The notes under the pieces are model-generated. The model searched no databases. It was given only the letters and a program-made list of their open reading frames with translations, and was not told the origin of the DNA. Below, in pieces: positions 5,088 through 33,429 of a DNA stretch of 34,485 nucleotides; position 1 is the stretch's first letter, and each line of letters opens with the position of its first letter. The DNA comes from a virus (taxonomy: Duplodnaviria > Heunggongvirae > Uroviricota > Caudoviricetes): the IMG/VR virus record IMGVR_UViG_2531839587_000015; one strand, 5' to 3'. The translations under genes were made by a program, and so were the position numbers.

Positions 5088-5599
5088 TGGCTGTACCAAA
5101 ACATCTTCGCTTTTTTACGCTGTTTGTGGATGGTGAAAACGAAGTGGGTAAGGTGACGTCCGTCACTCTGCCTAAGCTGACGCGCAAAACCGACAGCTAC
5201 CGGGGTGGTGGCATGATGGGTGCGGTAAGTATTGATCTCGGTCTGGACGACTCCGCGCTTGATGCGAGCTTTGTCATGGGGGGCGCAGTTCGTGAGCTGT
5301 TCCTTAAGTATGGCGGCACGATTGACGGCACGCTGCTGCGTTTTGCGGGTGAATACTACACCGATGCAGAAAGCGACCTGTATGAAGTCGAAATGCGCGG
5401 ACGTGTGACGGAAATTGATATGGGGGAAGCCAAACAGGGCGAAGCCACATCACACACTTACGCCATTAAAAACACCTACTACAAGCTGAGTGTTAACGAT
5501 CGCCCGTTGTGGGAGATTGACCTGCTGAACTTCATTTACCGGAAGGACGGCAAGGACATTGTGCCCGATCGCATCCGTTCCGCGCTTGGGCTTGGCTGA
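5087..5599 (+). CDS. FII: gpFII tail tube protein
   Basis: 170 aa. Start overlaps the FI stop (TGATG). Similar in length and sequence to P2 FII (LPKLTRK..YRGGGM..DLGLDD motifs). Confidence 0.9.
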   Translation: MAVPKHLRFFTLFVDGENEVGKVTSVTLPKLTRKTDSYRGGGMMGAVSIDLGLDDSALDASFVMGGAVRELFLKYGGTIDGTLLRFAGEYYTDAESDLYEVEMRGRVTEIDMGEAKQGEATSHTYAIKNTYYKLSVNDRPLWEIDLLNFIYRKDGKDIVPDRIRSALGLG

Positions 5600-5653
5600 T
5601 AAGTAATATGCAGGCGGCGCAGTGCGTCGCCTCTGACTGAAAGGAGTTTCCTG

Positions 5654-6019
5654 ATGAAAGAGACGAAAAACATCGATACCGAAAACACGGTAGTTACTGA
5701 CACTGTGAAAGAAACCAGTGAGCGTGGCGTAAAACTTACCCAACCAATTGAGCGAGGCGGCGAAAAAATCACGTATGTGGAGATCACCGGGGCTATTGAG
5801 CAGGCTGGATCTCTGCGAGATTTGTCGCTGTCTGATGTGCTGAATCTGAAAGCGGAATCCATGTTTACGCTGCTGTCACGCGTGACATCACCGCGACTGG
5901 ATGAAGTGACGATCAAAAAAATGGCATCCCGTGACTTTATTCAGTTATGTGTGGTTGCCGTAAATTTTTTGAGCGGTGCGGACTCTGGCGGGAAGAACGA
6001 ACAGGCGACGGAAGCCTGA
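5654..6019 (+). CDS. E: gpE tail assembly chaperone
   Basis: 121 aa with AAGGAG SD. Sits immediately upstream of the tape measure gene and contains the TTTTTTG slippery site near its 3' end. Confidence 0.85.
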   Translation: MKETKNIDTENTVVTDTVKETSERGVKLTQPIERGGEKITYVEITGAIEQAGSLRDLSLSDVLNLKAESMFTLLSRVTSPRLDEVTIKKMASRDFIQLCVVAVNFLSGADSGGKNEQATEA

Positions 6020-25614: not shown

Positions 25615-25730
25615 CGTTTACGGGATTCTGAAATCCCGTTTTTGCCTGTTTTGTGCGCGCTTCATATAGCGCTGCGCGTTTTTTGCTCATTTACGGGATT
25701 CGTGAGTCCCGTTTCTGTCTGTTTTTTGTT
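25615..25730. repeat. Two copies of a roughly 42-bp repeat, each with the palindrome ACGGGA-N8-TCCCGT followed by a T-rich tract, separated by a GC hairpin; candidate parC centromere/operator or replication-associated site
   Basis: Copy 1 at 25615-25655 (intergenic, upstream of parM); copy 2 at 25687-25730 (inside the last codons of A). Palindromes acgggattctgaaatcccgt and acgggattcgtgagtcccgt. Confidence 0.7.
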
Positions 25731-28484
25731 TCCACTGGTCAGGCCACCCCGCAGCAGGTCTGCTTTGCGGCTGGCGCGTTCAGTGGTTTCACTGATTCTC
25801 TGTGCGTGCTCTGCGTCGCGGATGGCGCGCAGCATGTCAGAAAGCACGGTAACGGGTGTTTTCATGGTGTTCTGGTCCTGCTGAAGTGTGGATGCCAGGC
25901 GTGCGGCGGCTTCAGGGTCTGATGCCCCCAGCTGTGCCAGATAGCTGGCGACCGGGTTATGGCGGATCTCCGTGCTGCTTACGCCATGATTACGGCTCAG
26001 ACGCTGCCAGAGCTGCGTGATTCGGCTGTCCGGGCGGGTATCCGGTTTGCGTACAATTTCAAATCCCTGCGGTGCAATGATGCTGCCGTCAACGTACAGA
26101 CTGCCGCCCCGTAACAGGTGCTGCATCTGTTGTTCACCGATATGCAGGCCGAGAGAATCAGCAGACTCCCGCCATTCTTTAGCGAGTAACTCGTGGTTAT
26201 CAGGCAAAGGCCGCTGCTGTTTGCGGCTCTGTGTCCAGTTCTGCATTTCATCGCTGCTGTTTTTTGCCTGTTTGTCACGAAGCGAACGCATCAGCGCCCG
26301 GCGTTCGTGCCGTTTCAGTGAGCGCATCCATTCATTTACTTCAACGCCGTCAGGAAGCTGCGGCCACGGTGCTGGCCGTTCTTCCGGCTGTTCTGTCCCG
26401 TTGTTGCCTGTTTCCTGTACACGGGGACAGTTATTGCCACGAGTCCAAGGGGCGGCAGGGCCGCCCTGAAGGTCAAAACCATTTTCGCGGGCGCTGTCTT
26501 CCGCTTCCGGTTTACGTCTTACCAGCTTCCAGTTATCCGGATGTGTGCACACACGGGAAGACTCCCCGATGAGTGGTGACCAGATCCCGTAAATCTGTAC
26601 GCTCTGTTCGCCGTAATCGTTCAGCTCATCTGCGAGGTCGTAGGCGGTGCGAATCAGGTAGTCTTGGCGTGGAACAAGTACGCCGCCCTGTTTCTCTATG
26701 TAGGAGGCAAAACACCCGGCATCAGCGGCAGCGAGCACTGCATCCATTGCGTCATCCTTCAGCCGTTGCGGGCCTTCCGGGTTGCGTGCCATCTGGCTGG
26801 CAAGGCGGCGCAGTTCACGCCACACCTGACGGGAGGGGATGCCAAAGAACTGGAACTGGCGGACCCGGTGAAGGCGCGCCCAGCCGATGGCGCGCTCCAC
26901 GCTCTCGGCCATTGATTTTCCGGTTTCGTGGTCAACGCGTGGCTTGCCCGTTTTCGGGTCGATACCATCCACGGCGCGGCTGTCCAGGTTCTTTCCGATG
27001 TAGGTGGCGATGTAGCTGGTCGGTGTGCCTTTTGAGCCGTCGACGTACTCTGCCTTAAAGCGTGGGGTAATATCATCACCCAGCTCGTGACGATCTTCCT
27101 GAATGGCAATATCGCGGGTGTGGGACACAATGGTGTCGATTTCTTCCGGATGAGCAAAGACCATCATATGCCAGTGCACGGTGCCGTCATGGTGAGGCTC
27201 CACCGTGCGGATGCCATACCAGCGCAGGCCGTCGCGGTTCAGTTTCTTGCGGACCGCCGCAAAAAACGAGTTAACCAGGTAATCGCTGGAGTCGCGCATA
27301 GTGGCCCCGTTCCATTTGGGATTCGGATGACCGTTCTCCGTTGTTGCGTGGTATTTTGACGGGCAGGTGACAGTCAGAAACACCGCTCTGTCGCCACGGG
27401 CTTCGGCCAGAAGTTCCAGCCCCTTCATGGTGGCCATCATTTCTGCCTTACGGTGAACCGGGTTACTTACTCCCGCGTAATACACTGTCTCAAGATCAAT
27501 CGTGAACCCGTCTTCGTTTTCCAGCATGAAACTTTTCAGGAAATCGCGTGTTTTCTCGCGCTGTGCGCGAAACTCGCTTAACGCATCCTGGCTCAGATAG
27601 GGCGATGTTTTTCTGGAAACCAGACAGGCGGCGCGGAGTTGTTCTTCTCTCCACTCGCAACGTAACAGCCACAGTTTGCGTTTCCACCATTCCGCACAGG
27701 TCAGGCGAAGGATTGCGCCCGGCAGCAGCTCCGTGTCTGGTTCGTTCCTCCGGCCTTTGTCTGTTGTCAGTGCGTCATAATGCGGAGGCATGGCGTGCAG
27801 GTGTAACGCCATGCGGGCCAGCATCTGATACGCCTTCAGCGTTACATCCATGGTCAGCTCGCCATCAGTCGCACCAAAGCCATCGCAGAGTTTTTCGAAG
27901 GTGCTGCTGAACATCGCCGCCGTCATGGTGGCCAGCGTCTGTATCTGGTGTTTGTTGAGCTGCGGCAGGTAAAGCAAATCGTCCAGGCGTTCGCGTCCGG
28001 CAAGGGAGCGATAACCCGGTGTCAGCCAGTGTCCGTCAGTGCGATCCAGACGTTCGAATATTTTGCGCAGGGTTCCGCGTGCATAGCGTTCTGCCTGCCA
28101 GCTCTTTTTGCCTTTCCGGCGATCGACTTCCTGTTTTTTGCGCAGGAAGGAGAGGTGGCGAATAAGCGGATCGCGCAGATAGGACGGCAGCAGGCGCAGC
28201 GAGGCCATGGCTTCATCCACCGCGCCGCGTGCCTGTCTTCTGGCGTCTCCTGCCAGCGTGATGGTTTTGTCCTGTTTTTCCTGTGCGTCCAGGCTTTTAT
28301 TAATCAGGTTGCCCAGTGGCGTGGCAGAGAACGCCGCATCAGCCTTTTCCTGTCGGCGCTCGTTCTCTGCCTGGTAGGCATCCAGCCAGGAGGAAAGCGC
28401 GGATTCAGGTGCGGGGATCCCCGTTCCTTCACGCCCCACTGCGTGGCGCGGTTGTTGCCAGTCCCTGATGTACTCTGTCGTCAT
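25662..28484 (-). CDS. A: gpA-like rolling-circle replication initiation endonuclease (940 aa)
   Basis: HUH-like HWHMMVF motif and the two-tyrosine active-site motif SYIATYIGKN, as in P2 A. Larger than P2 A (761 aa). Confidence 0.85.
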   Translation of the reverse strand: MTTEYIRDWQQPRHAVGREGTGIPAPESALSSWLDAYQAENERRQEKADAAFSATPLGNLINKSLDAQEKQDKTITLAGDARRQARGAVDEAMASLRLLPSYLRDPLIRHLSFLRKKQEVDRRKGKKSWQAERYARGTLRKIFERLDRTDGHWLTPGYRSLAGRERLDDLLYLPQLNKHQIQTLATMTAAMFSSTFEKLCDGFGATDGELTMDVTLKAYQMLARMALHLHAMPPHYDALTTDKGRRNEPDTELLPGAILRLTCAEWWKRKLWLLRCEWREEQLRAACLVSRKTSPYLSQDALSEFRAQREKTRDFLKSFMLENEDGFTIDLETVYYAGVSNPVHRKAEMMATMKGLELLAEARGDRAVFLTVTCPSKYHATTENGHPNPKWNGATMRDSSDYLVNSFFAAVRKKLNRDGLRWYGIRTVEPHHDGTVHWHMMVFAHPEEIDTIVSHTRDIAIQEDRHELGDDITPRFKAEYVDGSKGTPTSYIATYIGKNLDSRAVDGIDPKTGKPRVDHETGKSMAESVERAIGWARLHRVRQFQFFGIPSRQVWRELRRLASQMARNPEGPQRLKDDAMDAVLAAADAGCFASYIEKQGGVLVPRQDYLIRTAYDLADELNDYGEQSVQIYGIWSPLIGESSRVCTHPDNWKLVRRKPEAEDSARENGFDLQGGPAAPWTRGNNCPRVQETGNNGTEQPEERPAPWPQLPDGVEVNEWMRSLKRHERRALMRSLRDKQAKNSSDEMQNWTQSRKQQRPLPDNHELLAKEWRESADSLGLHIGEQQMQHLLRGGSLYVDGSIIAPQGFEIVRKPDTRPDSRITQLWQRLSRNHGVSSTEIRHNPVASYLAQLGASDPEAAARLASTLQQDQNTMKTPVTVLSDMLRAIRDAEHAQRISETTERASRKADLLRGGLTSGNKKQTETGLTNPVNEQKTRSAI

Positions 28485-28490
28485 ACTGAT

Positions 28491-28856
28491 TTACTGCGTC
28501 ATACCGTTCAGGGTGTCACGGCAAACGGCAGCCAGCCGCTGAATTTCCAGCACGGTGTCTTCTGTGTCGGCATAGCGATGTGTGATGCGGATGCTGTCGG
28601 CAATCACATCGACGATTGCAGAGGATGGGCGCTGGTAAATGCCAATAACGGACGGAGTGCCACCTTCAATGCGGTAAAGCCTGTAATTTCCCTCGTGGCT
28701 GTCAATCATGTAGCGACCATCAATAACAATCTTTCCGTCAGCGAGCTGCGGTACAGGCAGGGATTTCAGGTACATGTCATAACGTTCACGCACGCGAACG
28801 GCAAGATCACGCTCTGTGTTGAGCAGGTATTCAAGAAAGTCGTTGGCGAGAATCAT
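28491..28856 (-). CDS. Hypothetical early-operon protein (121 aa)
   Basis: ORF directly upstream of A in the same operon. Confidence 0.5.
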   Translation of the reverse strand: MILANDFLEYLLNTERDLAVRVRERYDMYLKSLPVPQLADGKIVIDGRYMIDSHEGNYRLYRIEGGTPSVIGIYQRPSSAIVDVIADSIRITHRYADTEDTVLEIQRLAAVCRDTLNGMTQ

Positions 28857-28928
28857 TGCGGCAATCCTCTTGTTACAGATGTGCGAAGGCCTCCTGCCGC
28901 AAGGTGCAGGAAAGGCCCGGAACAGGAA

Positions 28929-29159
28929 TTAATGGAGTTTGTTTTGCTGCTGGATGAGCTGCTGAAGCTCGCGCAGATCATCCGCCAGATAACTGAAAAC
29001 AGCGGATGAGTAGAGGTTTGAAAGTTCGCAGCTACGCTCATGCAGCATATTGATGTGCATGATTTTAGCGACGCGGAATGCGCGGGAAAGTCTGCGGTTG
29101 ATTTCAGTCTGGATGTGACGACGCTCCGCGATAGCGCGGTGCTGTTTGCGGTTTGCCAT
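28929..29159 (-). CDS. Hypothetical basic protein (76 aa)
   Basis: ORF with ATG. Follows a 370-nt structured non-coding region. Confidence 0.45.
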   Translation of the reverse strand: MANRKQHRAIAERRHIQTEINRRLSRAFRVAKIMHINMLHERSCELSNLYSSAVFSYLADDLRELQQLIQQQNKLH

Positions 29160-29336
29160 GGTGTGGCCTCTTTGGTTGTAAGTTTTGAAAACTCACCATC
29201 CAGAGCTGCGAAACTGTGGGTGGCGAGACGTACGGGGTTCGCAGTACCGGCAACCAAAGAACCCGGCCCGACCGAAGTCGGCCCCGTACGCCCCGCCATA
29301 ATTCTGACGCGAAAAAAACGTGGCAATACAGTACGC

Positions 29337-29360
29337 ACAAAAAAACCGCTGGCGCGGTTG
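29337..29360 (-). terminator. Rho-independent terminator inside the 29160-29526 non-coding region
   Basis: Minus strand reads aaccgc-gcca-gcgguu followed by uuuuuuu. Confidence 0.6.
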
Positions 29361-29526
29361 TGCGCTTTGGTTGTCAGCAGGCTGCGAAACCCGGCACCCG
29401 TTTTATGAGGTGCAGCGAAAATGTAACCTGACTGATTGCGGCATGGCAAGCGGTTTTTTTGTGAGAACGGCATACTAAAAAATCCTGATACTGCTCCGGC
29501 CAGCGGTTTGCACTGGCCGGGTGTCA

Positions 29527-30357
29527 TTACTTCACGGGAACGAACGGAACAGCGGGGTTACTGGTCATGTATTGCGGCAGCGTGCCGTTCCATTTGTTGA
29601 TTGCTTCCAGCTCCATAACGCCGGGATTCTGGCGCAGAGCTTCGCCGCGTAAACGAATGGCGTCGGCTTCAGCCTGGGCTTTTGTGCGAATGGCATCGGC
29701 CTGTCCGGCAGCTTCTGCGCGCAACATGTTGGCTTCTGCTTCGCGCTGCTTGACTTCCTGTTCGCGTTGCAGGGTTTTCTGGTTTGCCGTGACTTTGGCG
29801 TTAATGCTGTCGATAACGGTTGGCGGATATTCCGGTTTACCGACATAAGAGAGGCTCATGACCTGAATACCGATGGGGGTCATCTCTTCCTGAATATCTT
29901 TAAGTGCTGAATCCAGCAGTTCAGACTTACCACCGTCGATAAACTTATCGGTGGTCATTTTGCTGGCCAGTCGGTTGAGTGCATCGGCGATCTTCTGGCG
30001 CAGGTCAGTGTCGGTAATGTCGTCCACGCCTTTGCGGTAGGTCTGAAACACCGTGGTAACTTTGGATGGATCAACTTTGTAGGCCACGCCGATGTGATAG
30101 CCGATGGTTGTGCCGTCACTCATCTGGAAGTTGAACGGCTCATCGTAACTCTTCATTTGTTTGAAGGTCGGGAAGATGTAAACCTCTGTATTCCAGCCTG
30201 TCCAGTAGCGGCCAACGCCAACCACTTCACCGACGCCTTTGTCGTCGCCCAGTTTGTTGACTTTGATGCCCACATTACCTGGCTCAACGCGATCGCAACC
30301 AACCAGCAGGATGGCGGCAAAAAGCGGGAGAATCTGAAAGAGTCTGAATTTCTTCAT
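29527..30357 (-). CDS. SPFH/Band-7 (prohibitin/stomatin-like) lipoprotein, 276 aa
   Basis: Lipoprotein signal with LVGC lipobox, SPFH-like core, and a C-terminal Ala/Glu/Arg-rich coiled-coil (..QREAEANMLRAEAAGQADAIRTKAQAEADAIRLRGEA..). Confidence 0.75.
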   Translation of the reverse strand: MKKFRLFQILPLFAAILLVGCDRVEPGNVGIKVNKLGDDKGVGEVVGVGRYWTGWNTEVYIFPTFKQMKSYDEPFNFQMSDGTTIGYHIGVAYKVDPSKVTTVFQTYRKGVDDITDTDLRQKIADALNRLASKMTTDKFIDGGKSELLDSALKDIQEEMTPIGIQVMSLSYVGKPEYPPTVIDSINAKVTANQKTLQREQEVKQREAEANMLRAEAAGQADAIRTKAQAEADAIRLRGEALRQNPGVMELEAINKWNGTLPQYMTSNPAVPFVPVK

Positions 30358-30557
30358 TGTTTGATTTCCTTGATGTACTTACTGAAAAGGCGAACAACGC
30401 CTGCCGGGTACAGCATGGCAATGAAAATTCCCAGCAATACCAGGAAGGAGCTGTCTGATGAAATCATTCGGGGGAGTAGTCCTGCATACAGAATGAGAGA
30501 GACGAGGACGCATACCAGCGCCCACATGTATGCGCGAAACCAGGTCTTTTTGTTCAT
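30354..30557 (-). CDS. Small two-TM membrane protein (67 aa), translationally coupled to the SPFH gene (ATGA overlap)
   Basis: Two hydrophobic helices. Its stop overlaps the SPFH start. Confidence 0.6.
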   Translation of the reverse strand: MNKKTWFRAYMWALVCVLVSLILYAGLLPRMISSDSSFLVLLGIFIAMLYPAGVVRLFSKYIKEIKQ

Positions 30558-30568
30558 ATCGCGGTCCT

Positions 30569-30868
30569 TTACTGGTTAAGGAAAAAATCGAAAACGTTGT
30601 CGATGCGTTGCAGCAGCTCCTGCTGCATTGCTTCCGGCGTTTCTGATTCACCTGGTGACTCCAGCGTCGCGCAAAAATCCTTGATTTCATGATGGAGCGT
30701 CAGACGAATGGCAGGAGCCATGGTTCTGGCGTGCTCCAGCTCATCCAGCAGTGCCAGCACGGCAGATGGCGAGAGCATTGCGCGAAACGCCAGTAATTTT
30801 TGATGCGTTGCCATTCGTTGCAGGTCAGTCGCCAGTTCGCGTAATTCCTGGTGGTTGATGGCGCTCAT
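30569..30868 (-). CDS. Hypothetical protein (99 aa)
   Basis: ORF in the early operon. Confidence 0.5.
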   Translation of the reverse strand: MSAINHQELRELATDLQRMATHQKLLAFRAMLSPSAVLALLDELEHARTMAPAIRLTLHHEIKDFCATLESPGESETPEAMQQELLQRIDNVFDFFLNQ

Positions 30869-31131
30869 GCTCTGGCTTCCTTCAGTAGCAGGTTAAACAT
30901 GTGAGTAAGTGGATTGCTACACCCGAACGGCATCGGGTTTACGTGGTAAGAAGCCTGGCCTCCTGCTTTGCGAGCGCGACCACCTGTGCTGCGGTTTGTT
31001 CTGATGACTAAGCCGCCGCGCCAGAGTCGGCGTAACTCAGCATTGATGGCTGTGGTTGGGGTATTCAGTGCTGCGGCGATTTCTCCGCCGCTACAACCCG
31101 GATGGGTAGCGATGTAGTCCAGAATGGTCAT
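30865..31131 (-). CDS. Putative small winged-helix DNA-binding protein (88 aa)
   Basis: GGEIAAALNTPTTAINAELRRLWRGGLV resembles a wHTH recognition segment. Confidence 0.45.
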   Translation of the reverse strand: MTILDYIATHPGCSGGEIAAALNTPTTAINAELRRLWRGGLVIRTNRSTGGRARKAGGQASYHVNPMPFGCSNPLTHMFNLLLKEARA

Positions 31132-31331
31132 CTGCGTGACTCCTGTACCTGTCGGATAAGGTTCACCCGCACCACATTCGTGGCGCAGAAGTAAGTGCCG
31201 TCAGTGAGATAGATGTGATGTGCATCCTTTTCCGAACGATGTTTGTCGATAGTGGTAATCAGTCGTTCGTCGACCTCGTATTCGCGGTCTCTGGAGGTGA
31301 AGCGAACGACAGGAAAATGCTTAATTGCCAT
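31128..31331 (-). CDS. Hypothetical protein (67 aa)
   Basis: ORF overlapping its neighbours by 4 nt, suggesting translational coupling. Confidence 0.45.
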   Translation of the reverse strand: MAIKHFPVVRFTSRDREYEVDERLITTIDKHRSEKDAHHIYLTDGTYFCATNVVRVNLIRQVQESRR

Positions 31332-31648
31332 TACACCCTCTTGGCTTTATGTCTGTATTTGAGCTTTTCTATTTCTTCTTTTTGTTCTTTTAATGTTCTT
31401 ATGGCTGTGAAAACATTAAAGCCCATAAAATGTGCTCTGTTCGCTAATGTAATACTGGCACCTTTGTTAGCTATATCATCTTCAATATCAGTGAAATACT
31501 GACTGATTTCTTTTAGTGCGGCGCAAAGCTTTGCGAGATCTCGCCCCCTGTCAAAATATGCATCCTTCAGTATTTTTTGATTTGTCCTGAGCATGCTAAC
31601 CTCGTGTTTATATATATGGATACCTCCGCGAGTGCGGATTGTTTTCAT
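31331..31648 (-). CDS. Hypothetical protein (105 aa) with basic C-terminus, in an AT-rich insert
   Basis: ORF. Markedly AT-rich DNA compared with the neighbouring genes. Confidence 0.5.
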   Translation of the reverse strand: MKTIRTRGGIHIYKHEVSMLRTNQKILKDAYFDRGRDLAKLCAALKEISQYFTDIEDDIANKGASITLANRAHFMGFNVFTAIRTLKEQKEEIEKLKYRHKAKRV

Positions 31649-32705: not shown

Positions 32706-33032
32706 TCATGCAGCAAAATTAAGAAAGCCTAATCCCAAATCTTCCGCCAGCTTCTTGGCTTTATTAAGCCAGTGATTGCGCCAATCTTTACGCTCAGGAG
32801 GAAGTTGTTTCGTTGCGTCATAGACCATTTCGAGCCACTCGTTCCATAGGATGAGAAGGCGGCGTGAACTTCCTTCCTCGCCTAAAACTTCACGCTCAGT
32901 GGCCAGAGGGATGAGCCGACGTTCCACCAACTTTCTTACGGCTGATTCGGTCTTGCCCGTGCGGCGGGCAAATTCATCGACGGGGATGGGGTCTGGGATC
33001 TTAAACAATGCCCTCAATAGTTCTTCATTCAT
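32706..33032 (-). CDS. cox: Cox-like excisionase / early transcriptional regulator
   Basis: ..IPVDEFARRTGKTESAVRKLVERRLIPLA...W..W.. resembles P2 Cox. Divergent from C. Confidence 0.75.
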   Translation of the reverse strand: MNEELLRALFKIPDPIPVDEFARRTGKTESAVRKLVERRLIPLATEREVLGEEGSSRRLLILWNEWLEMVYDATKQLPPERKDWRNHWLNKAKKLAEDLGLGFLNFAA

Positions 33033-33126
33033 GTGATAATCTCCCTGTTTGGGGTATAGGTGAGATATTTACCCCATAGTTCAACTCATTGTTTGCATAA
33101 TGCACTACATATTTGGAGAATGCAAT
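33033..33126. promoter_or_regulatory. Divergent early promoter/operator region between cox (Pe) and C (Pc)
   Basis: Position between divergent cox and C as in the P2 immunity switch. Short inverted repeat ggggta...tacccc. No promoter elements assigned with confidence. Confidence 0.45.
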
Positions 33127-33429
33127 ATGATTTTGGAGATTGGTGAAAAACTAAAACTAATGCGTGAAAGTGAGCGCATTACAAGTCGCAATGAGGCTGC
33201 GGAGTTAATAGGTATTCCGCATAACGCGCTATGGCGTTATGAGACTGGCGAATCCATACCCAAAGGGGATGTAATGATGAAAATCTTAAATTGCCCGCGG
33301 TTCGAAAAATATGCCTTGTGGTTTATGACTGGAAAAATTGCGCCTGAATCCGGGCAGGTAGCTCCGGCTCTCGCACACTATGGGCAAGAGCCAACGGACT
33401 TACCCCCATCCGAAAGGAAAATTGGTTAA
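33127..33429 (+). CDS. C: C immunity repressor
   Basis: ..KLKLMRESE....L..L.G.P...L..YE.G.S.P..DVMMKIL..P.F.KY.LWFMTGKIAPESGQVAPALAHYGQ closely matches the recalled P2 C repressor. Confidence 0.85.
   Translation: MILEIGEKLKLMRESERITSRNEAAELIGIPHNALWRYETGESIPKGDVMMKILNCPRFEKYALWFMTGKIAPESGQVAPALAHYGQEPTDLPPSERKIG

Follow-up and report, generated by a model that had tools for sequence, protein, structure and literature searches.

By its sequence, the window analysed here, a stretch of 34,485 nucleotides of viral DNA taken at its full length, is a P88-like (Xuanwuvirus) prophage throughout. Its early leftward gene block holds, between cox (32706-33032) and A (25662-28484), a pair of genes on the minus strand that is gp11/gp12 of phage P88: a small gene coding for 67 aa (30557..30354) and an SPFH gene coding for 276 aa (30357..29527). 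As read directly from the sequence, the two are joined by an ATGA overlap at 30354..30357 (minus strand; TCAT on the plus strand), in which the TGA stop of the small gene and the ATG start of the SPFH gene have two bases in common. The Shine-Dalgarno sequence of the SPFH gene, AAGGAA, lies 9 nt ahead of the ATG, still within the small gene at its 3' end. The small gene in turn begins 11 nt after the stop codon of the upstream gene, with all genes being co-oriented. This layout agrees with the coordinates, lengths, overlap and position between cox and A in the early operon that were given in the original prediction. PHROG matches and deep conservation across phages mark both ORFs as genuine genes, not products of chance. 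A consensus scan upstream of the pair returned no promoter-like site, although a weak one inside the upstream gene could escape such a scan. Since the 11-nt gap leaves no room for a promoter, transcription of the pair would have to come from the early lytic operon, which is under repressor control. No convincing LexA box was seen by eye upstream of the derepression gene.

The pair is carried by an accessory cassette of 1105 bp (29464..30568, minus strand) comprising the Shine-Dalgarno sequence, the small gene, the SPFH gene and a 3' hairpin. Alignment by blastn with the sister phage P88_4B11 covers window positions 28000-29463 and 30569-31345, while 29464-30568 is replaced by 18 nt; phage P88 has the cassette and P88_4B11 is without it. 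When the junction of the cassette site was used as a query, the site was empty or otherwise filled in approximately 949 complete E. coli genomes and 145 carried the pair, which places it at approximately 13% of the P88-like prophage sites in these genomes. The cassette is therefore a discrete insertion at a variable slot, an accessory and not a core P2-family gene. The expectation that the pair lies outside the canonical P2 gene set is borne out by its absence from P88_4B11 and most P88-like prophages, and the pair is not a replication gene. Compared with the definition of a moron, the cassette is a discrete insertion between otherwise adjacent genes, but has no promoter of its own. Escherichia phage P88 (NC_026014 / KP063541) holds the pair in the same early-region slot, with proteins that are 98.5% (gp11) and 98.6% (gp12) identical to those of the window. 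In the P88 records, gp11 is given as a 'membrane protein' and gp12 as a lipoprotein or putative SPFH domain protein; this is annotation only, and the records describe neither a function nor the pairing. For the window alone the result is accordingly more modest, in that the pair is the already-sequenced gp11/gp12 cargo of P88.

The 276-aa protein (29527..30357, minus strand; PHROG 200) matches Pfam Band_7 (PF01145) over the full model with 108.2 bits against a cut-off of 23.6 (E=6.5e-31) and PHROG 200 with E=6.4e-112. Together with fold matches of the HflK/C type, this confirms the SPFH/Band-7 assignment. Its signal peptide and lipobox (aa 1-21; 30295..30357, minus strand) run from MKKFR through a hydrophobic core to LVGC21, satisfying the pattern [LVI][ASTVI][GAS]C. 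The signal reads MKKFRLFQILPLFAAILLVG-C21-DR, and the whole segment is MKKFRLFQILPLFAAILLVGC, followed by DR. Cys21 (30295-30297) is the invariant lipobox residue in 8 distant phage homologues, in keeping with the lipoprotein call made earlier. The +2 residue is Asp22, and Asp occupies this position in 102 of the 108 enterobacterial-type homologues with a recognizable lipobox. In Enterobacteriaceae, Asp at +2 is a Lol-avoidance signal. Hence, from LVGC with Asp at +2, the protein is predicted to be anchored in the inner membrane, facing the periplasm.

The SPFH domain (aa 23-209; 29731..30291, minus strand, by Pfam envelope and AF2) is modeled with strands at 21-95 and 164-176 and helices at 97-162. 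The AF2 fold is made up of SPFH1/2 and two helices, one of 65 aa and one short. The 65-aa element is the Ala/Glu/Arg-rich coiled coil that had been predicted, here a single long CC1-type helix (aa 179-243; 29629..29823, minus strand), whose counterpart in alignments with 7vhq and 7vhp is the coiled-coil wall of HflK. Toward the C-terminus, homologue alignments reveal a family-specific motif, K-W-N-G-x-L-P (aa 255-261; 29575..29595, minus strand), in which K, W, G and P do not vary between phages as far apart as those of E. coli and Staphylococcus phage K, nor among the enterobacterial homologues. The monomer model is moderately confident (pLDDT 74), with values below 50 at the C-terminus, including the KWNGxLP segment; such low confidence would be expected if this tail folds solely in an oligomer cap. 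Foldseek places HflK/C (7vhq), prohibitin (8rrh) and erlin at the top of the full-length matches, with E-values of approximately 1e-13 to 1e-14, and also finds stomatin, flotillin and QmcA, the whole set spanning 1e-14 to 1e-8 over 240-300 columns. A sequence search retrieves just one solved SPFH core, that of HflK (E=1e-4). The best NCBIfam matches, hflC TIGR01932 (25.7 bits against a cut-off of 134.4) and hflK TIGR01933 (23.4 against 159.4), both fall far under their thresholds.

The 67-aa product of the upstream gene (30354..30557, minus strand; identified by ORF, PHROG match and AF2) is a helical-hairpin protein, predicted to be the inner-membrane partner of the SPFH protein. It matches PHROG 1130 (E=1.3e-22), and its AF2 model consists of two hydrophobic helices, H3-32 and H37-66, with a pLDDT of 91. 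These helices and the ATGA overlap uphold the proposed coupling of the lipoprotein to a two-TM protein. The layout comprises TM1, a turn with the sequence P29-x-x-I-S33-S-D-S, TM2 containing G43 and a basic tail. Among 42 family sequences, P29 never varies, and at least 90% keep S33 and G43. The charges (+/-) amount to +47/-7 at the N-terminus, +9/-31 in the turn and +117/-55 in the tail, a distribution that predicts an N-in/C-in topology with an acidic periplasmic turn. No Pfam family matches the protein at E<=0.01, and its profile has no relative in the PDB, where the matches are only noise (E>=0.35). For the protein and 19 relatives (20 members), the NfeD family is absent among Pfam matches at E<=1, and the holin matches are isolated and sub-threshold (Phage_holin_2, 0.032; Holin_SPP1, 0.17; one of the 20 members each). 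When the 67-aa protein alone serves as the query, only relatives of the E. coli type are retrieved, with 19 matches in one search and 14 in a second, one of the latter (P0145) being a repeat protein that was discarded as spurious. Likewise, tblastn retrieves 24 phage records, and a profile search was needed to recover more remote relatives.

The SPFH protein is found by tblastn in 798 of 50,697 phage records. In an HMM search, 185 of 196 loci have a homologue of the small protein directly upstream of the SPFH gene, a count for which the HMM was trained partly on sequences from the same loci, so that the independent figures are those from 28 bacterial-genome loci and four reverse look-ups. The 28 loci, which stood outside the building of the HMM, include 20 that are HMM-positive, two fusions and two with a displaced copy. 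In the reverse test, all four homologues of the small protein, chosen blind to SPFH, adjoin a Band_7 gene or lie one small gene away from it. Furthermore, a small ORF is present upstream of the SPFH gene in 80/80 close IMG/VR loci, and the two genes are fused in frame in three cases (L188, L192 and P0020). The commonest offset between the two genes in related loci is the 4-nt overlap (86), followed by 20 nt (23) and 10 nt (10), as counted in a motif-based survey that is subject to start-codon errors in high-GC loci. The 196 loci span P2-like, Stx-lambdoid, P1-like, N4-like, rV5-like, T4-like and Burkholderia phages, and the pair is present in obligately lytic phages (N4-like, rV5-like and T4-like). 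Hosts of the module range from Proteobacteria to Bacteroidales, SPFH homologues also occur in Halorubrum viruses, and the sampled bacterial-genome copies of the pair are surrounded by phage genes. In the P1-like RCS47 and in Stx phages, the pair is preceded by an intergenic gap of approximately 200 nt, which could house a promoter of its own. The hairpin is absent in Pseudomonas Bruynoghevirus, Ounavirinae, Staphylococcus Kayvirus and Pokken; as some SPFH clades are without it, the hairpin is not universally required.

As judged from these sequence comparisons, the new result is the conservation of the SPFH-hairpin pairing across phage families: the phage SPFH lipoprotein travels with a previously unnamed hairpin as a two-gene unit, across lifestyles as well. 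SPFH proteins are universal, while their bacterial functions are poorly defined, and the pair defines a small, portable and genetically tractable SPFH-partner system. A full-text literature search returned no functional study of phage SPFH lipoproteins, only speculation.

Among the known systems, E. coli HflK/HflC (7vhp, 7vhq, 7wi3, 9cz2), an SPFH cage that modulates FtsH, has in common with the phage protein the SPFH1/2 domains, a long CC1 helix and a segment for the C-terminal cap. In HflK/HflC, the SPFH domains are found at the inner membrane, facing the periplasm, as is predicted for the phage protein. However, the latter has a lipid anchor in place of the N-terminal TM helix, a single SPFH gene in its cassette instead of a K/C heterodimer pair, approximately 17% identity and its own KWNGxLP motif. 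SPFH-NfeD operons (QmcA-YbbJ, 8z5g; FloT-YuaF; FloA-NfeD2) likewise couple an SPFH gene to a small membrane-protein gene, but the phage partner is a bare two-TM hairpin without an OB-fold, and the phage assembly would be turned toward the periplasm instead of the cytoplasm. Relatives in PHROG 200 are MbpS of Staphylococcus phage K, proteins of the Burkholderia phages BcepF1 and Maja, annotated as 'HflC/HflK family inner membrane lipoprotein', and gp045 of the N4-like phage S6. Within this family the lipobox Cys and the KW.G..P tail are kept, whereas the hairpin partner is kept in part of the family only.

Sequence and family analogy together suggest that the pair may be a mobile module of two phage genes whose products form an SPFH assembly at the periplasmic surface of the inner membrane early in lytic growth, a reading that we hold tentatively and consider plausible, if somewhat short of probable. 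The pair would be transcribed with cox...A from the repressor-controlled early promoter. The SPFH protein would then be exported, lipidated and held in the inner membrane via Lol avoidance by Asp at +2. Because the lipid anchor is kept in the inner membrane, the SPFH domains would come to lie on the periplasmic leaflet, as in the HflK/C topology. By analogy with other SPFH proteins, oligomerization via the long CC1 helix and the KWNGxLP tail would yield a closed dome; to our knowledge, every SPFH protein solved so far forms one. Extrapolation by a regression of SPFH subunit number on CC1 length (y=0.1782x+10.22; PMC12624060) points to approximately 22 subunits in the dome, with a range of perhaps 20-24. 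Translated together with the SPFH protein, the hairpin would join the dome at a ratio of approximately 1:1, with its P-x-x-I-S-S-D turn against the membrane-proximal face. A precedent for such a stoichiometric partner is the 26:26 cage of QmcA-YbbJ, composed of 26 heterodimers (PMC13086221).

With low confidence, and by analogy, the purpose of such an assembly might be to fence off a patch of the inner membrane, and either to control a quality-control machine of the FtsH type or to shield phage or host membrane proteins from one. Its role would be host takeover, of use to lytic and temperate phages, rather than lysogen-expressed defence, although our confidence in this is low as well. FtsH or another quality-control target is a guess from family analogy and, as far as we know, Halorubrum hosts are without FtsH, which counts against this target given the homologues in Halorubrum viruses. 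A rather doubtful further reading is that of a virus-made SPFH cage, in which a lipid-anchored dome with a minimal hairpin subunit captures or neutralizes a host inner-membrane machine from the periplasmic side. Candidate targets would be FtsH and membrane immune sensors or effectors, such as MotAB-like or pore-forming abortive-infection proteins. If the module does cage a host membrane machine, it would add a new class to the takeover or counter-defence functions of phages and offer a model for client choice by SPFH domes, and the virus-made cage would be a widespread device and the simplest known SPFH-partner system.

The original prediction had left the choice between an exclusion or defence module and a modulator of host envelope physiology. 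The former is not supported, given the lack of promoter room, the lack of a meaningful PADLOC match and the presence of the pair in obligately lytic phages, and the latter fits the evidence better. Superinfection exclusion by an early-made pair, with the lipoprotein assembly and the hairpin stopping the DNA of later phages at the inner membrane, is in our estimate unlikely, though not negligibly so. Incoming DNA has to cross the inner membrane at its extracytoplasmic face, the predicted site of the assembly, and the genes are early ones in those P2-like, lambdoid and lytic phages that were examined. Precedents for exclusion include Imm and Sp of T4 and the lipoprotein Sie factors Llp of T5 and Ltp of TP-J34. 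Exclusion would profit lytic phages too and is thus compatible with the wide distribution, but the host-generic spread, from Proteobacteria to Bacteroidales, speaks against the block of a specific entry receptor. Moreover, SPFH cages span small membrane patches and cannot cover the whole membrane, no likeness to known Sie families was found (Pfam and PADLOC negative), and no experimental report turned up in the literature searched. Improbable in our view is expression in the lysogen, whether as an abortive-infection or exclusion system or in lysogenic conversion as an envelope or virulence factor like PM0222. The pair is accessory cargo in a variable slot and moves among P2-like, Stx and P1-like temperate elements, which would suit such a role. 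PM0222 itself, an HflK/C-like protein from a lambda-like prophage island of Pasteurella multocida, is reported as an OMV-released TLR1/2 agonist and virulence factor (PMC9872710), yet it resembles the pair as a prophage SPFH protein by description only, and its phenotype concerns host immunity, not phage biology. Expression in the window, with only 11 nt ahead of the pair, hangs on a repressed early operon, and obligately lytic phages that carry the pair form no lysogens. In PADLOC-DB v2, the SPFH protein has no match, while the small protein has one of 14 bits over 20 residues to the candidate PDC-M18B (E=0.008), which is regarded as noise.

No less improbable is an HflK/C mimic that tunes the lysis-lysogeny decision via FtsH degradation of a CII-type activator, as proposed in phage genome papers (PMC8540360; PMC10269572; PMC4936722). 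Although HflK/C are the nearest characterized relatives in sequence, fold and topology, the SPFH protein scores more than 100 bits below both equivalog cut-offs, the switch in the phage of the window is of the P2 C/Cox type, and nothing resembling CII was seen in the early ORFs that were scanned. The module is, furthermore, common in strictly lytic phages, an observation shared by one of these papers (PMC8540360). We find it very unlikely that the pair times lysis, with the hairpin as a class-II-holin-like membrane lesion protein that is restrained or organized by the SPFH cage. The size of the hairpin, its topology (two TMs, N-in/C-in) and its basic tail do resemble pinholin-type proteins, and in Kayvirus the SPFH gene mbpS and a holin-like one-TM gene, mbpV, lie between endolysin and tgl (PMC7150955). 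However, this Kayvirus partner is not homologous to the hairpin, the holin Pfam matches stay sub-threshold and isolated (2/20 members), and in the window, as in the other Gram-negative phages examined, the pair is located among early genes, well away from the lysis cassette. Least credible, to the point of being nearly dismissed, is the capture of an ordinary SPFH-NfeD operon from a bacterial chromosome. Such operons have the gene orders yuaF-floT and qmcA-ybbJ and follow the logic of the phage pair, in that the gene of a small membrane protein is coupled with that of an SPFH protein. Of the NfeD-type partner originally suggested, the operon position, often held by NfeD, stands as an analogy, whereas membership of the family is refuted, with no NfeD Pfam match and a length of 67 aa that is too short for the missing OB-fold domain. 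In addition, the SPFH protein is predicted to be lipid-anchored and extracytoplasmic, whereas QmcA faces the cytoplasm, and the setting of the sampled bacterial-genome copies amid phage genes also argues against such a capture.

Two smaller observations concern the 3' end of the cassette and the naming of the SPFH protein. Folding of the RNA of 29290-29530 (minus strand) gives an isolated GC-rich 10-bp hairpin at 29497..29521 (minus strand), 5 nt past the SPFH stop and within the cassette, with the stem CCGGCCAGUG/CGCUGGCCGG. It was considered as an intrinsic terminator and rejected, since the U-run begins approximately 12 nt later, which is not canonical, and the terminator scan made no call; the hairpin accompanies P88-type copies only. 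The annotation 'serine protease', which the protein bears in Stx phages, in RCS47 and in a note on P88, is likewise rejected, as Band_7 is the only domain present and there is no protease domain. Phage-encoded SPFH proteins are annotated in hundreds of genomes, often wrongly under this name.

The two coupled genes of the original prediction were confirmed, both on the minus strand: a 67-aa hairpin ORF (30557..30354) followed by a 276-aa SPFH ORF (30357..29527). Plus-strand bases 30354-30357 read TCAT, so that the stop codon of the hairpin gene and the start codon of the SPFH gene overlap (ATGA on the coding strand). An AAGGAA Shine-Dalgarno sequence for the SPFH gene lies within the 3' end of the hairpin gene, and the hairpin-gene ATG is separated by only 11 nt (AAGGACCGCGAT), a gap that is itself Shine-Dalgarno-like, from the stop codon of the preceding gene, which encodes a 99-aa Ead/Ea22-like protein (30569-30868). 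The surrounding genes form a single tightly packed leftward block. Between cox (32706-33032) and the pair lie DUF4761, DUF4754, several small ORFs, a MarR-type wHTH and the Ead-like gene; the pair is followed by a gap of ~370 nt, a 'derepression protein' gene (28929-29159, minus strand; Pfam PF25738, PHROG 3688), a 121-aa ORF and replication gene A (25662-28484). Divergent from this block are a C-type repressor (33100-33429) and an integrase (from 33463). By its sequence, the whole window is a P88-like (Xuanwuvirus, Peduoviridae) prophage, and the paired proteins are 98.5% and 98.6% identical to P88 gp11/gp12.

The SPFH interpretation of the 276-aa protein proved right. It matches Pfam Band_7 over residues 23-209 with 108 bits (cut-off 23.6) and PHROG 200 'lipoprotein' with E=6e-112, and its AlphaFold2 model (pLDDT 74) displays an SPFH alpha/beta core, a long helix (aa 179-243) and a short helix (aa 247-254), beyond which the tail is unconfident. 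Foldseek searches of the PDB returned near full-length matches to the cage-forming SPFH proteins HflK/C, prohibitin, erlin, stomatin, flotillin and QmcA (E ~1e-14 to 1e-8), while a sequence search of solved SPFH cores detected HflK alone (E=1e-4). The best NCBIfam matches, HflC and HflK, fall >100 bits below their equivalog cut-offs. Since the Band_7 and fold matches hold and the equivalog cut-offs are missed, the protein is classified as a true SPFH protein of predicted HflK/C-like periplasmic topology, and not as an HflK or HflC orthologue. Its N-terminus, MKKFRLFQILPLFAAILLVG-C21-D22, forms a classic lipoprotein signal, and the Asp at +2 is the residue that retains Enterobacteriaceae lipoproteins in the inner membrane. 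The lipobox Cys is invariant across eight phage homologues with identities down to 25%, and of the 108 enterobacterial-type homologues whose lipobox is recognisable, 102 have Asp at +2. The alignments also show a C-terminal K-W-N-G-x-L-P motif that is invariant throughout the family. The label 'serine protease' in several records is unfounded, because Pfam finds only Band_7 and no protease domain.

The 67-aa protein matches PHROG 1130 ('membrane protein', E=1e-22) and has no Pfam family; twenty diverse relatives, each scanned against Pfam, gave no recurrent family and no NfeD match, and the family profile found nothing in the PDB. AlphaFold2 with 42 relatives predicts a confident hairpin (helices 3-32 and 37-66, pLDDT 91). 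In the hairpin alignments Pro29 is invariant, Ser33 and Gly43 are at least 90% conserved, and the turn carries the motif P-x-[LM]-[IVF]-S-[SA]-x-[DS]. Among 31 representatives, basic residues mark the N-terminus and tail and acidic ones the turn, so that under the positive-inside rule the ends are predicted to be cytoplasmic and the conserved turn periplasmic, on the same side as the predicted SPFH location.

The main addition to the original prediction is that the pairing is conserved. A hairpin ORF lies immediately upstream in 80/80 IMG/VR loci with close SPFH relatives (overlap 4, 10 or 20 nt), and lambdoid Stx-type contigs also pair both genes, with an unannotated hairpin of ~45% identity. 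With a same-strand match ending -400 to +120 nt from the SPFH start as criterion, the hairpin HMM was positive in 185 of 196 SPFH loci, most of which had contributed to the HMM; the independent set of 28 bacterial-genome loci comprised 20 positives, two in-frame fusions, two hairpins displaced by ~750 nt and four loci without one. The commonest spacing, at 86 loci, is the ATGA overlap of 4 nt. Conversely, four hairpin homologues were chosen blind to SPFH, one of them on a T4-like contig, and each is separated from a Band_7 gene by at most one small gene. Among annotated phages, the pair occurs in P2-like P88, in Stx2a phages (adjoining int/xis), P1-like RCS47 (near ban), N4-like S6 (gp044/045), rV5-like SSE121 (with a 54-aa gene between the two) and Burkholderia phage Maja; no hairpin precedes the SPFH gene in Pseudomonas FBPa29, Ounavirinae phi63_307 or Stenotrophomonas Pokken, and in Staphylococcus phage K an unrelated one-TM protein takes its place. 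Three putative natural in-frame fusions join hairpin, signal peptide and SPFH: two in metagenome-assembled genomes (L188, 5467-6840; L192, 5743-6960), one of them labelled Iamiaceae, and the E. coli protein cluster P0020 (8 members). The SPFH protein was found by tblastn in 798 of 50,697 phage records, and a nucleotide search located its gene in 393 of the 5426 complete E. coli genomes, with 34 places lying on plasmids; sampled bacterial-genome copies are surrounded by phage genes.

Plasmids of 92-97 kb are among the E. coli carriers. On a Shigella flexneri (L181) and an E. coli (L182) chromosome, ~750 nt without a long ORF (~5233-5986) splits the hairpin gene from an SPFH gene 90.6% identical to that of the window; the spacer may be an insertion remnant that uncoupled the pair. 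In RCS47 (L170, 3001-4021) tRNA genes surround the pair, which lies between plp/upl and ban (dnaB); its hairpin gene is unannotated and its SPFH gene is labelled 'putative serine protease'. Window positions 29560-30306 share ~92% nucleotide identity with Stx2a phages (e.g. L003, 2676-3413) over the mature SPFH part only, whereas the signal peptide and hairpin gene are far more diverged between P2-like and Stx copies (~45% protein identity for the hairpin). As the high identity is so limited, the sequences imply different histories for the membrane-embedded parts and the periplasmic body, with a putative recombination breakpoint near the lipobox.

The alignment of P88_4B11, a sister phage of P88, with the window breaks off at 29463 and resumes at 30569 after 18 nt, so the cargo is exactly 29464-30568: a Shine-Dalgarno sequence, the pair itself and a 63-nt 3' stretch with a 10-bp GC hairpin by RNA folding (29497-29521). 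A query of both flanks joined (at least 80% coverage) matches 949 complete E. coli genomes, not all strictly empty because at least one match joins two pieces around a shorter insert; the listed contiguous examples cover ~515 nt, which is the empty site. The full pair is present in 145 complete E. coli genomes (occupancy ~13%). This comparison and P88_4B11 bear out the earlier view that the pair is accessory. As the cassette starts right after a stop codon and a scan upstream of the pair found no promoter, we infer transcription from the early lytic promoter, held off by the prophage repressor.

Databases already list the genes as P88 gp11/gp12 and under PHROGs 200 and 1130. What the literature searched does not describe is that they form a module, conserved and mobile and in some cases fused, whose distinctive hairpin partner is not NfeD and whose lipid anchor is extracytoplasmic. 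For phage SPFH lipoproteins, full-text searches turned up no experimental work and only speculation, including help with Sec-dependent export of a lytic enzyme in Kayvirus (PMC7150955) and involvement in adsorption or DNA entry (PMC13239085). An HflK/C-like protein of a Pasteurella multocida prophage is a reported virulence factor (PMC9872710), and SPFH proteins are also common, without assigned function, in other phages and giant viruses.

Our tentatively favoured reading, an early-made periplasmic SPFH cage for host-envelope takeover, builds on the observed SPFH fold, lipobox with Asp at +2, hairpin, coupling, conserved synteny, fusions and cassette borders; any specific client is proposed with much less confidence. 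SPFH complexes recurrently partner membrane proteases or quality-control machines (HflK/C with FtsH, prohibitin with m-AAA), and HflK/C shares its membrane side with the predicted location of the phage protein. For these reasons, our best guess is that the module would fence off or capture an inner-membrane machine in the infected cell. The SPFH protein would be exported by Sec, lipidated, retained in the inner membrane and, as in every solved SPFH complex, assembled into a homo-oligomeric dome, for which the published regression of subunit number on the length of the long coiled-coil helix CC1 (y=0.1782x+10.22; PMC12624060) would predict ~22 subunits given a 65-residue helix. The hairpin might be incorporated stoichiometrically, by analogy with the QmcA-YbbJ cage (26:26; PMC13086221), its periplasmic turn contacting the membrane-proximal face of the dome.

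The exclusion or defence module first proposed finds no support here. Lysogen-expressed exclusion or defence is opposed by the inferred transcription from a repressed early promoter, by the absence of a credible PADLOC match and by the fact that obligately lytic phages carry the module too; defence or conversion in the lysogen is quite improbable, and superinfection exclusion acting early in infection, against which these points do not speak, is unlikely. HflKC-style control of lysogeny, in line with the speculated influence through FtsH (PMC8540360, PMC10269572, PMC4936722), must contend with the P2-type C/Cox switch of the window and again with the lytic carriers, and we consider it quite improbable. 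A holin-related role is very improbable. The SPFH-NfeD pairing invoked originally survives as an operon analogy, and we rate the pair as belonging with SPFH-partner operons; NfeD identity fails, as Pfam finds no such domain in the hairpin family, and a plain NfeD operon is extremely unlikely.

The early operon holds a second variable slot (31346-31619), which aligns to neither P88 nor P88_4B11 and lies in a low-GC region (0.37-0.42) within a 105-aa ORF (31331-31648; PHROG 21900, no annotated function). Directly downstream of the SPFH gene, Rfam identifies isrK RNA (29339-29413, minus strand, 65.9 bits) and C4 antisense RNA (29216-29303, minus strand, 87.1 bits), followed by the derepression gene. 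By sequence, this looks like an RNA-controlled antirepressor unit of the P1 immI / Gifsy-1 isrK-anrP type in a P2-like early region, a reading that fits the positions of same-strand promoter-like sites (29449-29420, 29326-29298) and of the isrK terminator (29359-29344). A 224-aa ORF (28853-29527, minus strand) begins where the SPFH gene stops (TAATG), runs over the derepression gene in a different frame and matches Pfam Phage_ASH (30 bits, cut-off 26) exactly over the isrK and C4 RNA genes. It carries the label 'transcriptional regulator' in P88_4B11 and, in RefSeq, 'ash family protein'; it is probably the RNA region read as protein, which would make the Ash family annotation questionable here. 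Between gene A and the portal/terminase genes lie a ParM/StbA actin-like segregation ATPase (24626-25585, minus strand; Pfam StbA_N 266 bits, ParM C-terminal 229 bits) and a Plasmid_stab_B/ParR-like protein (24310-24756, minus strand), neither with a PADLOC match. Such a plasmid-type partition system is surprising cargo for an integrating, integrase-bearing P2-like prophage.
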